30,739 nt of DNA from positions 1 through 30,739 of the forward strand of contig JAKFCT010000063.1 in assembly GCA_036676495.1 (NCBI GenBank). Direction: 5' to 3'. A program made the translations under genes and the position numbers. Source of the stretch: Candidatus Sericytochromatia bacterium. Its GTDB lineage: Bacteria; Cyanobacteriota; Sericytochromatia; S15B-MN24; UBA4093. Positions 2,126 to 27,773 of this stretch are shown here, one piece after another (positions within the stretch are counted from its first letter, which is position 1; each line of letters starts with the position of its first letter). The notes below the pieces were generated by a model. That model searched no databases. It saw nothing but the letters and a program-made list of their open reading frames with translations, and was not told the origin of the DNA.

Positions 2126-2196
2126 GCTCCAAGCCCACGGTGCGGCGCGCGGACTCAACCATCCGCGTGAGCAGGTTCGAATCCTGCCTTGGGGCC
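2126..2196 (+). tRNA. Degenerate tRNA-like element (anticodon position CAA, 8-nt loop)
   Basis: Acceptor GCTCCAAG/CTTGGGGC; perfect T-arm GCAGG-TTCGAAT-CCTGC; anticodon stem CGCGGA/TCCGCG with loop CTCAACCA. D-arm weak, U8 absent, no encoded CCA. Confidence 0.6.
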
Positions 2197-2308
2197 TCAA
2201 CTCACAACCTCTCCCGGGGAAGGCCGCTACCGCCTGGACCGTGAGACGGGGGATTGCGCCGGGGAGTCGGGACAGCGCTATCCCCCCAAGTTTTCAGCGG
2301 AGGAGCCG

Positions 2309-24284: not shown

Positions 24285-24832
24285 GCCGCGCTCTGATCGA
24301 CCCGAAGACGGGTAAGCCCTTCGCCTCGAAGCGCAAGGACCTCTCGCGCCTGGAATTCCTCGTCGTCCACCATGCCGGGCCCGGCACCGAGAAGTGGACG
24401 CCGGAGACCTTCATCCGGCACCGCCACGAAAGCGCCCTCACCTGGCAGAAGGCCGAGCAGAAGGCCAAGCGCCCGGGGACGCTCTACGCCTACTCGGGGA
24501 ACGGCTACAACGCCGTCGTCTTCCCGGATGGGTCCTGGACCCTCGACGTGCCCCTATCCGAGACCGCCTGGAGCACTGGGGGGCTCAACTCCATCTCCCT
24601 GGCCATGTGCTTCGCCGGCGACTACACCAGCAAGCTCCCCCCCGAGCTGGCCTTGAAGCGGGGTGAGCAGATCCTCGTCGCCTGGGAGCGGGAGTTCCAG
24701 TGGCGGCCAAAGATCATCGGGCACCGGGACGCCATCAGGTACAGCAAGGAGGCGACGCGCACAGCCTGCCCGGGCGACAAGCTCTATCCCTACCTGCCGA
24801 CTCTGATCAAGCGCGTGGAGGGCTACCGATGA
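24281..24832 (+). CDS. Endolysin, N-acetylmuramoyl-L-alanine amidase (amidase_2, T7-lysozyme-like)
   Basis: VVHH, GYN, IIGHRD, TACPG zinc-amidase motifs. Confidence 0.92.
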   Translation: MSRALIDPKTGKPFASKRKDLSRLEFLVVHHAGPGTEKWTPETFIRHRHESALTWQKAEQKAKRPGTLYAYSGNGYNAVVFPDGSWTLDVPLSETAWSTGGLNSISLAMCFAGDYTSKLPPELALKRGEQILVAWEREFQWRPKIIGHRDAIRYSKEATRTACPGDKLYPYLPTLIKRVEGYR

Positions 24833-25497
24833 GCAAGCGCCTGTACCTGGCCCTCGCTGCGGCGGGGGCCGCCCTCTTGGCCTTCCTGGGCCTCACCCGC
24901 TGCCCCGCGCCGGATCCGGTCACTCCGCCGGCGGCGATCGCCTCCCCCATGCCCGCGCCCCAGGCGGAGGCTACCAGCTCGGCGGCCGCCACGGCGACGG
25001 GAACACTCAAGGCGACCATCCGGCGACCTATTGGGCCCCATGCGCCTCAAATCAAGTCGGAAAACCTGCACAATGGGCCTGAAGCCCAGGCGGGAAGCGA
25101 CGGGCCCCATGCGCGAGATTTCGAGGAGATCGTCATCGAGGTCAGCCAGACCGCGACGGCAGCCGCCAGCTCCGAGGCTTCGGCTGCGGCCGAAGCCCCC
25201 TCGCTGGAGTGGGTGCGCCGCGAAGAGCCACGCGGACGTGACGACCATGCCCGCCTCGGGGTCATGGGCGCGACCGTTCCAGGAGCCATCGCGATCACCT
25301 ACCAGCTCATGGCCGTCGAGCTGCCGCCCTGGCTCCTCGGCACTCCCCTGGAGCTGGGCCTGGACGCCGCCGTGAACCTCGAAGCGGGGGCGCTGGGAGT
25401 GACGGCTGGCCAGAAAGCCTTTGCAGGAGCCTACTACTGGTCCCGATGGAGCCTGAGCGATCACGGGCCTGCGATTGCGGTGGGCCTCAGATTCTAG
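24829..25497 (+). CDS. Membrane-anchored lysis-cassette protein (spanin position)
   Basis: ATGA overlap with endolysin; N-terminal hydrophobic helix then Cys25; C-terminal amphipathic strands ending AVGLRF. Confidence 0.7.
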   Translation: MSKRLYLALAAAGAALLAFLGLTRCPAPDPVTPPAAIASPMPAPQAEATSSAAATATGTLKATIRRPIGPHAPQIKSENLHNGPEAQAGSDGPHARDFEEIVIEVSQTATAAASSEASAAAEAPSLEWVRREEPRGRDDHARLGVMGATVPGAIAITYQLMAVELPPWLLGTPLELGLDAAVNLEAGALGVTAGQKAFAGAYYWSRWSLSDHGPAIAVGLRF

Positions 25498-25540
25498 GCA
25501 AGACTACCCGAGTATATCCCGATCTCCGTATACTTCCCCC

Positions 25541-25567
25541 CCCCCGGCTTCGGCCGGGGGCTTTTTC
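25541..25567 (+). terminator. Intrinsic terminator closing the late operon
   Basis: CCCCCGGC-TTCG-GCCGGGGG-CTTTTTC. Confidence 0.88.
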
Positions 25568-25576
25568 GTTTCTCGT

Positions 25577-25620
25577 TATTTTTACGGTCGTAGTATTGAC
25601 ATAGTATTTTTACGGTCGTA
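25577..25620 (+). repeat. Two identical 16-bp direct repeats (putative operators)
   Basis: TATTTTTACGGTCGTA at 25577-25592 and 25605-25620; each holds the palindromic core TACG-GT-CGTA. Confidence 0.92.
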
Positions 25621-25624
25621 TTAT
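25596..25624 (+). promoter_or_regulatory. Near-consensus sigma70 promoter
   Basis: TTGACA (25596-25601), 17-nt spacer, TATTAT (25619-25624), in an AT-rich patch. Confidence 0.88.
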
Positions 25625-25670
25625 TAATCTTGTCAGGCGGATGCACCGCCAAGCGAGAGGAGAGATGACG

Positions 25671-25820
25671 ATGGCGAACGTTACGGTCAACGGCATGGAG
25701 AAGGAAGCGACCGGACTCCTCGATCTTTTCCTTGATGGCGAGACTGTCGAGAGCGTCGATCAGATGGAGTGGGCCTCTGAAGCCACTCGTGAGTTTATCA
25801 AAGCTGAGATGGGTAAGTAG
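25671..25820 (+). CDS. 49-aa acidic protein MANVTVNGMEKEATGLLDLFLDGETVESVDQMEWASEATREFIKAEMGK
   Basis: GAGGAG SD, first ORF after the promoter (alternative ATG 25665); below the ORF-track size cutoff. Confidence 0.75.
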   Translation: MANVTVNGMEKEATGLLDLFLDGETVESVDQMEWASEATREFIKAEMGK

Positions 25821-25837
25821 GCGAGGGGATAGAAGCG

Positions 25838-26071
25838 ATGTACCACCTTGTCAACACGATGACCAGCACCGAAGCCAACCACGTCGGGAGGCATATCAGC
25901 TCACACGACACCCAAGAGGAGGCGGAAAAGGCTCAGACTGAGTTTGATGCCAAGTTCGAGCCCGGCTCATATGTCCCTACCACCATCGTCTCCGAGGATG
26001 ATGGTTATTACCTGGAGACGGGGGACGTTTGGCGCCGCCCTTTCGCCGGGGCCGGGGCCGCCCAAAGCTAG
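25838..26071 (+). CDS. 77-aa acidic protein
   Basis: GAGGGG SD; ISSHDTQEEAEKA motif. Confidence 0.75.
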   Translation: MYHLVNTMTSTEANHVGRHISSHDTQEEAEKAQTEFDAKFEPGSYVPTTIVSEDDGYYLETGDVWRRPFAGAGAAQS

Positions 26072-26196
26072 GCGTCAAGTCCCGAAAGGTCACGCTGGAC
26101 GACGAGACCTGGGATTGGCTATCCAGCCATCCGGGAGGAGCCTCTGCCGCAATCCGCCAGCTCGTAGACCAAGCCCGCACCCAGCCCCGCCGATGA
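26029..26196 (+). CDS. 55-aa ribbon-helix-helix-like DNA-binding protein with RGRGRPK arm
   Basis: Translates as (M)APPFRRGRGRPKLGVKSRKVTLDDETWDWLSSHPGGASAAIRQLVDQARTQPRR, resembling the DUF2239 core as I recall it. TTG start after GGGGG, or reached by -1 frameshift. Confidence 0.75.
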   Translation: MAPPFRRGRGRPKLGVKSRKVTLDDETWDWLSSHPGGASAAIRQLVDQARTQPRR

Positions 26197-26210
26197 GCGG
26201 GGCTTTTTTG
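26183..26210 (+). terminator. Intrinsic terminator of the accessory operon
   Basis: AGCCCCGC-cgatga-GCGGGGCT-TTTTT; the RHH stop codon lies in the loop. Confidence 0.88.
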
Positions 26211-26218
26211 CTTTCTCC

Positions 26219-26416
26219 CTACCCCAGACCGAGACGCCTCTCGACCAATGGCATCAACGCGCCGACCACGCCCAACCGATATCCGAGCTCCCATGATTCC
26301 CGGTCCCGAGGTTCTAGGCCGGAAACGACGAGTACGCCCCAGGCCCTGTCGACCAGCTCTTCCAAGTCGAGGGAAGAGAGGTCCAAGGTGGGAATTGGGA
26401 TGGTGGAGTCGAGCAT
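26219..26416 (-). CDS. 65-aa hypothetical protein
   Basis: AGGAG SD before ATG; converges on the terminator. Confidence 0.6.
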   Translation of the reverse strand: MLDSTIPIPTLDLSSLDLEELVDRAWGVLVVSGLEPRDRESWELGYRLGVVGALMPLVERRLGLG

Positions 26417-26429
26417 GGGTGTGGCTCCT

Positions 26430-26457
26430 AGAAGAAGACCCGCCGGAATGGCGGGTC
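26430..26457 (-). terminator. Terminator-like hairpin after the response regulator
   Basis: GACCCGCC/GGCGGGTC stem followed by TTCTTCT on the minus strand. Confidence 0.6.
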
Positions 26458-26465
26458 AGGCAAGT

Positions 26466-26867
26466 CTATTGGTCGGGGTTAGCTGCCACCGAGTTGCCGG
26501 GCTTTGGTTGGAGGCCCAGCGATTCAAGGGCTGAGACTAGTGATTTAACCTTGATCGCCTTTTCCAGGCAGATCGTCGTCTCGGGATCGAGCAGGTCGCG
26601 GACGCGATCCTCGGATTCGGCCGTCACGAAGATGACCGGGACCTGGGTGGTGCGGGGGGATTGCCGCATCTTCCGACAGACGTCGTCACCGTTCATGAGG
26701 GGCAGGTTGATGTCGAGGATGACGGCCGCGGGAACGAAGTCTTCGATCGCATGCAGGGCTTCGATGCCGTTTCGGGCGATCCGGACGGCGTAGCCGAAGT
26801 CGTTAAGGCGACGGACCAGGAACTCGACGGTATCCGGGTTGTCTTCGACCAAGAGAATCTCAGGCAC
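26466..26867 (-). CDS. Single-domain response regulator (CheY-like receiver)
   Basis: ILLVEDN, ILDINLP (phospho-Asp), PVIFVTA, LEK; GTG start after GAGGTG. Confidence 0.92.
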   Translation of the reverse strand: MPEILLVEDNPDTVEFLVRRLNDFGYAVRIARNGIEALHAIEDFVPAAVILDINLPLMNGDDVCRKMRQSPRTTQVPVIFVTAESEDRVRDLLDPETTICLEKAIKVKSLVSALESLGLQPKPGNSVAANPDQ

Positions 26868-26885
26868 GGTCCACCTCAAAGCAAG

Positions 26886-26914
26886 GCGCTCGAAGGCCGA
26901 AGGCCTCCGAGCGC
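26886..26914 (-). terminator. Hairpin with C(UUCG)G loop between regulator genes
   Basis: Minus strand GCGCTCGGAGGCC-TTC-GGCCTTCGAGCGC followed by CTTGCTTT. Confidence 0.5.
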
Positions 26915-26924
26915 ATAGGGATGA

Positions 26925-27773
26925 CTACTTGATCTTGAGGGTCGCCTTGACCTTCTTGAGGGTCTCCGGCAGGTCCTCGGTCTGAATCTGGCCCATCAGC
27001 ATGAGGCGCAGATCCCGCTCGGGGACGTCGGACTCGAGCGCCAGACGGCGAACGTCGAGGTTGCGCTTGCCCATGCCCTGGAAGATCTTGACGACGATGG
27101 GCTCGTAGCGATCCTCGGGGGGGAAGATCTTGAGCATCTCGTCGGAGATCTTCTCGGCCGAGGAGGGGCCCTTGGCGTAGCCGCGCGCCAGCATCAGCTT
27201 GTTGACGAGCAGGTTCATGAAGACATGCTCGATGGCCAGCGGGTTGCGCTCGGCCCAATCCTGAACGGGGGCGAGGTACTCGGCGAAGGTCTCGGGAGCG
27301 AGGTCGAGAGCCTGGGCGATCTTCTCGATCACCTCGGGGTTGCGGGGGAACGGCACGTCACCGCGCAGGATCTCGTACATGTAGGTGCGGGAGATGTCCA
27401 CCCGACCGGCGAACTCCTGGCGCGAGAGGCCCAGTTCCTGCATCCGGCTCCAGAGCTTGCGGGTGGACTCGGGCAGCGAGCTGACCAGCACCTGGTACTC
27501 GGGGAAGACCATCGGGTCGATCTGGGCGACTTCGGCGAAGCGCTCGAGCGTCTCGCGAACCGTGGGGAACTTCACCTTGGCGTTGAAGATCCGCGACACG
27601 TACTCGTAGCTGAGTCCCGTCTCCTTGACGAAGGTCTTGCGGTTGACGCCCGCAAGCTCAAGGCTCCGCTTCAGGATGTCAATCGACGGGCTGCGCGGCC
27701 GGGTCGATGCGGTGGACTCGCCACGCACGGGCATGCGGCTGAGAGAACGAGCTCGGGTGTTCATGGCGATCAT
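26925..27773 (-). CDS. Multi-HTH (XRE-like) transcriptional regulator
   Basis: Two homologous XRE units (GLSYEYVSRIFNAKVKFP...FPEY; DISRTYMYEILRGDVPFP...FAEY) and a third HTH-like C-terminal unit. Confidence 0.8.
   Translation of the reverse strand: MIAMNTRARSLSRMPVRGESTASTRPRSPSIDILKRSLELAGVNRKTFVKETGLSYEYVSRIFNAKVKFPTVRETLERFAEVAQIDPMVFPEYQVLVSSLPESTRKLWSRMQELGLSRQEFAGRVDISRTYMYEILRGDVPFPRNPEVIEKIAQALDLAPETFAEYLAPVQDWAERNPLAIEHVFMNLLVNKLMLARGYAKGPSSAEKISDEMLKIFPPEDRYEPIVVKIFQGMGKRNLDVRRLALESDVPERDLRLMLMGQIQTEDLPETLKKVKATLKIK

Follow-up and report, generated by a model that had tools for sequence, protein, structure and literature searches.

A putative moron-type cassette in a phage-like element of a Sericytochromatia genome carries a minimal DUF2239-type ribbon-helix-helix gene behind a promoter with paired palindromes

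We analysed a stretch of 30,739 nucleotides (nt) from Candidatus Sericytochromatia bacterium (contig JAKFCT010000063.1, hereafter the window), which is one whole contig of a metagenome-assembled genome of 4.1 Mb that is 91.9% complete. The window contains a phage-like element of about 24 kb (approximately 2022-26219), and a small cassette lies at the right end of this element (approximately 25563-26219). The cassette consists of a promoter overlapped by two palindromic repeats, two small acidic open reading frames (ORF1 and ORF2), a third open reading frame for a predicted ribbon-helix-helix (RHH) protein (ORF3) and a terminator. It is probably a moron-type cassette whose expression is limited by its own last product, ORF3, at the paired TACGGTCGTA operators, with a control unit derived from the Pfam family DUF2239. 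The main new result of our comparisons is that DUF2239 genes across phyla commonly share the promoter layout of this cassette. The two terminators, promoter, repeats, leader hairpin and three open reading frames described in the original prediction, which was made from the letters of the window alone, were all present where it had placed them (Table 1).

The product of ORF3 matched the Pfam profile DUF2239 (PF09998) with 71.7 bits (gathering cut-off 25; E 9e-20) over positions 73-120 of 182, and it scored 67.3 bits to the same profile in the genome scan. DUF2239 proteins are about 200 amino acids (aa) long and are composed of an N-terminal domain of about 75 aa, a central arm followed by an RHH, and a C-terminal helical domain of about 65 aa. 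An alignment with ten full-length relatives showed that every invariant residue of the central block is kept in ORF3 (GRPKLG, V, L, W.WL, GGAS and R.L), including the basic RGRGRPKLG arm, which we take to resemble an AT-hook. The distance from the GRP motif to the C-terminus was 46 residues in ORF3 and 105-130 residues in 85 of 87 loci, the exceptions being one locus with 78 and another without the exact motif; it was 105-130 in 13 of 13 metagenome loci. The full three-part architecture was not found in the cassette, as profiles of the N- and C-terminal domains gave about 0 bits downstream of ORF3 and in the surrounding frames. By these alignments, ORF3 is the central RHH part of DUF2239, without its N- and C-terminal domains.

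No short relative of ORF3 was found in IMG/VR or in the metagenome scan. The phage collection returned only two records, both from one metagenomic 'Acinetobacter phage' and annotated as a conserved bacterial protein, and 158 plasmid or chromid records matched, the annotated ones among the matches listed reading 'DUF2239'. The AlphaFold model of ORF3 had a mean predicted local distance difference test (pLDDT) of 75.7, rising to 87-89 over residues 21-50, and showed an extended segment (residues 19-24) followed by two helices (25-32 and 37-51). The VIA-align search with this model gave 29 weak structural matches with Z scores of 2.0-3.1, mostly RHH proteins by title, which included the PutA RHH on its operator, Arc, ParD2, CopA, NikR, omega, MazE, TacA and PrpA; the top match was the RHH domain of AcrIE10 (Z 3.1). 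The sequence-profile search of the PDB returned no RHH match, and its matches of the DUF2239 N-terminal domain to designed beta-trefoils were rejected as spurious.

Scanning of positions 24500-27500 of the window for promoters and terminators revealed a single sigma-70-like site, with 11 of 12 consensus matches and a spacer of 17 nt, when shuffled sequences gave an average of 0.5 sites. The sequence TATTTTTACGGTCGTA is repeated identically over 16 bp at 25577-25592 and 25605-25620, 28 bp from start to start, and the repeats extend to 21 nt at 95% identity. Each repeat (O1 and O2) contains the 10-bp palindromic core TACGGTCGTA, exact copies of which occur only at these two positions in the entire 4.1-Mb assembly. 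The core of O1 ends 3 nt before the -35 hexamer, and its centre would be located at about -43.5 if transcription starts at about 25631. O2 lies within the spacer, and the final two bases of its core double as the first two of the -10 hexamer. The 5' leader folded no better than 12 of 200 shuffled sequences (z -1.6), so that the hairpin alone is indistinguishable from chance. No tRNA gene and no Rfam family was found in the window.

We then compared this layout with that of 110 DUF2239 loci, taken from 80 genome contigs of many phyla (including Bradyrhizobium, Bosea, Burkholderia, Achromobacter, Cupriavidus, Deinococcus and Bryobacteraceae), 7 IMG/VR sequences, 13 metagenome sequences and 10 relatives. 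Operators were counted on the 104 loci with complete upstream DNA, six incomplete loci being left out, as were a 13-residue chance match (L031), a C-terminal fragment at a contig end (L021), a match below the cut-off (L023) and the short form L022. A paired site was defined as two TACCCGGGTA-like sites with at most two mismatches each, located 24-32 bp apart, and the controls were size-matched stretches within or 3' of the DUF2239 gene. Of the 104 loci, 63 had paired sites, and of the 103 control stretches, none; a first pass had given 50 of 84 loci, with 0 and 0 in the controls. The spacing was exactly 28 bp, as in the window, in 33 of the 63 paired loci, and TTGAC followed the first site after 3 nt, again as in the window, in 44 of them. 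The sites of the family promoters lie 5' of the -35 hexamer and across the spacer and -10 hexamer, which is the register of O1 and O2.

The same genome carries one full-length DUF2239 gene, and its promoter consists of TACCCGGGTA, 3 nt, TTGACT and a second TACCCGGGTA that overlaps the -10 hexamer TATTAT, the two copies being 28 bp apart. The last two bases of the second copy open the -10 hexamer, and the layout in the window is identical apart from the core. At the loci of nine other relatives, an 18-bp palindrome, ATATTACCCGGGTAATAT or a near variant, occurs twice in most and once in L019. In one relative (L016; G010 contig C25), the two operator copies that precede the DUF2239 gene mirror one another, as TACCCGGATGA ... 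TCATCCGGGTA, and form one large inverted repeat around the -35 hexamer instead of two direct copies of a palindrome. A literature search on 'DUF2239' returned nothing, and among the matches listed for the operator word (titles and abstracts) none concerns an operator.

Comparison of the cassette with the host gene and the family showed that the operator core and the presumed DNA-reading strand are both changed. The core is CCCGGG in the family and in the host and CGGTCG in the window, where both operator copies are altered alike, and the outer TAC...GTA and the AT-rich flanks are unchanged. Among 96 full-length proteins, the strand REV[TS]LLP[RE]HW hardly varies, an invariance that is inflated because the patterns used for collection favoured this strand; the corresponding sequences are RKVTLDDETW in ORF3 and REVSLL in the host paralogue, which is 50% identical to ORF3 and shares its conserved dimer-interface residues. 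Residues of RHH strands alternate between inward and outward positions (Arc, MetJ, CopG). When read in this way, the core-packing hydrophobic residues V and L would be kept in ORF3, and at the outward positions E would be replaced by K and L by D.

A joint change of both operators is what is expected if the protein encoded downstream reads them, and we therefore infer that ORF3 binds its own promoter. The best explanation of these sequence comparisons is that the promoter, operators and RHH form a unit that was derived from the DUF2239 family and re-specified. Because the operator core and the residues of the sheet are both changed, no cross-reaction of ORF3 with the DUF2239 gene of the host is expected.

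The two cargo genes are of a different nature. GGAG-type ribosome-binding sites precede ORF1 and ORF2, the GC content by codon position supports the named frames of both (lowest at the second position, highest at the third), and both are called as genes in the protein collection (P0002 and P0001, respectively). Their GC content is 53% for ORF1 and 59% for ORF2, compared with 61-70% for the neighbouring phage genes. Neither had a family match in Pfam, PHROG, NCBIfam or PADLOC, a set of libraries that held no dedicated anti-defence or anti-CRISPR (Acr) library. A word-based protein search returned ORF1 alone; no relative was found in IMG/VR, the search of its own genome gave only the self-match, and the ESM Atlas gave no usable match. 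ORF1 is an orphan as far as these sequence searches go, and its protein-likeness score (recognition) was 1842, under the guide value of 2300.

Searched exhaustively by phmmer, a set of 1.84 billion representatives yielded three small homologues of ORF2, of 71, 84 and 89 aa, at 60%, 47% and 48% identity, respectively. They share with ORF2 a conserved N-terminal region of 50 residues and a GD[VA]W motif, and they are free-standing proteins that end shortly past this motif. This conservation indicates that ORF2 is a real but very rare protein. Two long repetitive matches (983 and 487 aa) were set aside as low-complexity artefacts. ORF2 was not found in 60 relatives and 400 further genomes of the phylum, nor in IMG/VR or the phage and plasmid collections; the ESM Atlas gave unnamed small-protein clusters (top score 0.85), which we take as a lead only. 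The single-sequence model of ORF2 was of low confidence (mean pLDDT 51.6), with a helix at residues 26-38 and a hairpin at residues 49-60. The most probable targets of the two acidic proteins are the host or competing phages.

The element that carries the cassette encodes, between 2124 and 25497 and all on the plus strand, a ParB-methyltransferase, the large terminase, the portal, a MuF-like protein, the scaffold, the major capsid protein, the tape measure, tail proteins, a holin-like protein, an amidase and the final gene of the lysis region. No integrase, repressor or replication gene was seen among its scanned ORFs. A second, diverged copy is located at a different site of the same genome (contig C79, approximately 2220-26800; L122, L123 and L117). 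The lysis genes of the two copies are 80% identical in DNA and the methyltransferases 83-92% identical in protein, the methyltransferase of C79 being broken (in two frames, with a TGA), and the large terminase of the window had no match on C79. The left homology boundary of both copies is directly past the stop codon of unrelated host genes, and the right boundary of both is at ...TGCTTTCTCCC. The element may be a defective prophage or the locus of a gene-transfer-agent-like particle.

C79 lacks the cassette, its lysis terminator being joined directly to the 21-nt end sequence, and so do the related genomes G001 and G008, where a tRNA-Leu gene is located at most about 170 nt past the lysis terminator. 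Because the 21 nt directly trail the terminator in C79 and trail the cassette in the window, the cassette is, by this alignment, an insertion or deletion of 642 bp with short direct repeats at its borders. The terminator of the lysis operon is conserved 3' of the lysis gene in the sister elements. The self-contained nature claimed for the unit was thus borne out by its own promoter and terminator, by the lysis-operon terminator that insulates it and by the insertion or deletion relative to the sister elements.

Two further observations concern the ends of the element. Near its left end in both copies (window 2140-2200; L122 2330-2400), a GGTTCGAATCC-type stretch resembles the T-arm of a tRNA; ARAGORN found no tRNA there, and the stretch may be the remnant of an old attachment site. 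To the right of the element, positions 26219-27773 encode, on the minus strand, a 65-aa ORF, a 137-aa single-domain response-regulator receiver protein and a 282-aa protein with Cro/C1-type helix-turn-helix domains. These genes probably belong to the host or to another island because the right flank of the sister element differs.

Table 1. Features of the cassette and of its borders (positions in the window)
Feature	Position	Strand	Description
Intrinsic terminator of the lysis operon	25541..25568	+	25541-25560 (8-bp GC stem, TTCG loop), then T run
Left bounding direct repeat	25557..25575		GGGGCTTTTT-G-TTTCTC; poorer copy, 3' of the lysis terminator
Operator repeat O1 (predicted)	25577..25597		T-rich flank and core TACGGTCGTA at 25583-25592
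-35 hexamer	25596..25601	+	TTGACA; promoter scan
Operator repeat O2 (predicted)	25605..25625		T-rich flank as in O1 and core TACGGTCGTA at 25611-25620
-10 hexamer	25619..25624	+	TATTAT; promoter scan
5'-leader hairpin	25637..25651	+	GGCGG-atgca-CCGCC; read from the sequence
ORF1	25671..25820	+	49 aa, acidic (D+E 11, K+R 4); GGAG 8 nt upstream
ORF2	25838..26071	+	77 aa, acidic (D+E 13, K+R 5)
ORF3	26029..26196	+	TTG start, 55 aa, K+R 12; basic RGRGRPKLG arm and predicted ribbon-helix-helix
Heptamer C_CCT_TTC, in the ORF2 frame	26038..26044	+	A slip would join ORF2 1-69 to ORF3 6-55 (idea only)
Cassette's intrinsic terminator	26183..26212	+	26183-26204, then T run; starts within the final ORF3 codons
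Right bounding repeat	26199..26219		95% identical to the 21 nt trailing the C79 lysis terminator; sister homology stops here

We propose that host RNA polymerase would transcribe the cassette from its near-consensus sigma-70 promoter, which the lysis-operon terminator would insulate from the late and lysis operon. Dimers of ORF3 would bind both TACGGTCGTA palindromes, with their basic arms in the flanking AT-rich minor groove. The dimer on O2 should exclude RNA polymerase because this operator spans the spacer and the first bases of the -10 hexamer, and O1 (at about -43.5) could serve cooperative repression, or activation at low occupancy. As long as the promoter is free of ORF3, ORF1 and ORF2 would thus be produced in an early burst, and the operon would afterwards keep its own expression at a low set level. 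The predicted autoregulation by ORF3 is well supported because DUF2239 genes carry paired palindromes in the same promoter register. The autoregulation by an RHH protein proposed in the original prediction has in this way gained a foundation in DUF2239 membership and in the palindromes of the family. Sequence and comparison show the anatomy of the cassette, the membership of ORF3 in DUF2239, the operator layout of the family and the insertion or deletion, and we infer the binding, the repression and the structural details.

Several points weigh against this proposal. The start codon of ORF3 is a TTG, the sole canonical start that includes the conserved arm in its open frame of 64 codons, its ribosome-binding site is merely fair, it overlaps ORF2 by 43 nt in the -1 frame, and it is uncalled in the protein collection. 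Its structural matches are low in Z, and Foldseek returned none. With a spacing of 28 bp, O1 and O2 lie on different sides of the DNA helix, and the extra domains of the family that might bridge dimers are missing from ORF3. The simple search found no paired site in 41 of the 104 family loci, so that the operator rule of the family is common and not universal, and the loci themselves were collected by peptide patterns that favour the conserved strand. The search of sequencing runs for the stretch listed a single soil-metagenome DNA run, which may be its source, and no RNA run.

Two alternatives bear on whether the three reading frames are what they seem. The cassette could be a decayed DUF2239 copy that has kept the promoter and RHH and lost the C-terminal domain by deletion, with ORF1 and ORF2 as accidental reading frames in what remains of the N-terminal domain. 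The clear homology of the promoter, operator register and RHH to DUF2239 loci would fit such a history, as would the weak TTG start of ORF3, its overlap with ORF2, and an ORF1 without relatives and with a protein-likeness below the guide value. However, the profiles of the N- and C-terminal domains gave about 0 bits on ORF1, on ORF2, on all three frames of 25625-26060 and downstream of ORF3, ORF2 is conserved in its three homologues, ORF1 and ORF2 have ribosome-binding sites and a coding-type GC periodicity, and a clean terminator is present 3' of ORF3, which makes decay very unlikely. The idea that ORF1 or ORF2 are split-off DUF2239 domains was rejected on the same profile scores and by hhalign against the family alignment, which gave a probability of 0.1%. 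We give equally little credence to a -1 ribosomal slip at C_CCT_TTC that would join ORF2 and ORF3 in part of the products into a two-domain, DUF2239-like regulator of 119 aa. ORF3 is in the -1 frame of ORF2, its only canonical start is a TTG, the heptamer is of the X_XXY_YYZ type, in the correct frame and inside the 43-nt overlap, the joined reading enters the RGRGRPKLG arm, and the family always has a domain before this arm. On the other hand, a stimulatory structure is lacking (in folding, the 81 nt starting at 26030 did not surpass shuffled sequences; z +0.42), ORF2 is unlike the DUF2239 N-terminal domain, its homologues are free-standing and end soon past the GD[VA]W motif, and we estimate that a few per cent of overlaps this long would contain such a heptamer by chance.

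The other two alternatives concern the function of the cassette. An addiction module of the toxin-antitoxin type, with the RHH as antitoxin and autorepressor, would agree with the many type II antitoxins that are RHH autorepressors, with the presence of ParD2, MazE, TacA and PrpA among the structural matches and with L022, the only other short DUF2239-like RHH found, which precedes a pair with a ParE toxin. It is highly improbable, since ORF3 ends with its second RHH helix and is without a C-terminal toxin-binding tail, the gene order is reversed, and ORF1 and ORF2 are small, acidic and without a match to a toxin family. An anti-defence operon of the acr-aca type, in which ORF1 and/or ORF2 inhibit CRISPR-Cas or another immune system of the host and ORF3 is an Aca-like repressor that acts after entry, is suggested by the strong promoter, small acidic proteins, terminal small repressor, inverted repeats over the promoter and location on a mobile element. 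RHH regulators of acr operons exist: Aca14 is described as one (bioRxiv 10.64898/2026.07.27.740549), and AcrIE10 has an N-terminal RHH domain (PMC13530269); the latter domain tops the structural matches of ORF3, though with a Z of merely 3.1. We nevertheless consider such an operon unlikely. ORF1 and ORF2 matched no family in the libraries named above, none of which is a dedicated anti-defence library, and a search for Cas1 (PF01867), which covered neither other Cas families nor CRISPR arrays and whose control was positive in 7 of 14 genomes, did not find it in the 91.9%-complete assembly. Searches of IMG/VR and of the phage and plasmid collections gave no relative of the cassette. By far most members of the regulator family are chromosomal and of full length, and the check for variable cargo upstream of RHH homologues proposed in the original prediction went against that prediction, with cargo ORFs between the promoter and the DUF2239 gene in 0 of 110 full-length loci, the promoter being directly 5' of the gene; in L022, the RHH is the first gene of its cluster. 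The guilt-by-association logic used for aca genes fails here because the family has no such upstream cargo. The module for anti-defence or host takeover that had been proposed is therefore unsupported, and Aca10, which had been cited as an RHH precedent, is instead described as a predicted helix-turn-helix regulator (PMC9410881).

We also considered a broader reading, in which the DUF2239 proteins are pan-bacterial AT-hook and RHH autoregulators that share the paired TACCCGGGTA sites and in many cases govern a small GIY-YIG nuclease-like gene, and ORF3 is a dominant-negative mimic acting through mixed dimers. Two copies of TACCCGGGTA, 28 bp apart, may have been kept from Deinococcus to Burkholderia and Acidobacteria, and the element may have captured the DNA-binding core, recoded its strand and operator and used it to drive two new acidic effectors. 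Mixed dimers of ORF3 and the host DUF2239 protein are possible because the residues of the dimer interface are conserved. This reading as a whole appears improbable to us; if true, mixed dimers would disable the host regulator of a possible nuclease-based host system.

The nuclease in question comes from an observation on the neighbours of the family. A gene of about 121 aa for a GIY-YIG-type nuclease-like protein adjoins DUF2239 in 7 of 10 relatives (L001 2084-2443 and its equivalents in L012-L017) and in 24 of 100 wider loci, where it overlaps the DUF2239 stop codon or diverges from the operator region. Its domain matched the PADLOC model 'HEase' (E 1e-7) and TIGR01453 (E 7e-5, under the cut-off of that model). 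DUF2239 may regulate this small neighbour. A second stand-alone DUF2239-like RHH of 61 aa (37.5 bits) is encoded at L022 (G027 contig C116, 1507-2207), at the head of a cluster of three genes, the other two of which encode an acidic protein of 85 aa and a toxin of the ParE family; no TACCCGGGTA-type repeats were found upstream of it. Judged by its gene content, this cluster resembles a three-part toxin-antitoxin locus whose regulator is separate, and the DUF2239-like RHH module would thus serve as a free-standing regulator elsewhere.

Returning to the self-limited moron-type cassette, we compared it with known systems. The cassette has in common with Pfam DUF2239 loci the central 48 positions with the family-invariant residues and the promoter layout, whose palindromes are spaced by 28 bp, with 3 nt between the first of them and TTGAC and with the second overlapping the -10 hexamer. 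It differs from them by the absence of the N-terminal (about 75 aa) and C-terminal (about 65 aa) domains, by the core CGGTCG instead of CCCGGG, by the changed strand residues, by its location in a phage-like element behind two unrelated small genes and by the absence of the small GIY-YIG-like neighbour. Phage morons are add-ons of promoter, gene and terminator in the late regions of lambdoid phages and are usually single genes without a repressor of their own. The cassette resembles them in that it lies past the last late gene, has its own promoter and terminator, is present in one and absent from other related elements and deviates in composition; it differs in its dedicated repressor and operators, which are predicted. 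It is best described as a moron-type add-on with a minimal, re-specified DUF2239 control unit.

Three-part toxin-antitoxin loci with a separate regulator are of the paaR-paaA-parE type. L022 conforms to them, as its RHH precedes the acidic protein and the toxin, whereas the RHH gene comes last in the cassette, in which no toxin family was detected. The reports on Aca14 and AcrIE10 describe a small RHH repressor that is last in, or fused within, a small operon of a mobile element, with an inverted repeat that overlaps the -10 and -35 hexamers and negative autoregulation as the expected logic, all of which the cassette would share. The cassette differs in that it has no known Acr gene and no Cas1 was found in its host genome, and ORF3 is a DUF2239-type RHH with a basic N-terminal arm; its likeness to Aca14 is one of description only. 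By analogy, the logic of the cassette may resemble that of acr-aca operons, autoregulated toxin-antitoxin loci and control-protein units.

These comparisons call for caution, as a layout like that of acr-aca operons is alone insufficient to identify anti-defence genes. With Aca14 and AcrIE10 as the earlier two, ORF3 would be the third independent minimal RHH repressor on an accessory operon of a mobile element, here with a cargo that the libraries do not recognise. The uncharacterised and widespread DUF2239 family gains a testable hypothesis, that of a self-regulating DNA-binding protein with a defined operator. The host gene (REVSLL and CCCGGG) and the cassette (RKVTLD and CGGTCG) would represent a natural swap of specificity within one genome, and this pair could reveal how this type of RHH protein reads DNA and yield orthogonal small repressors.

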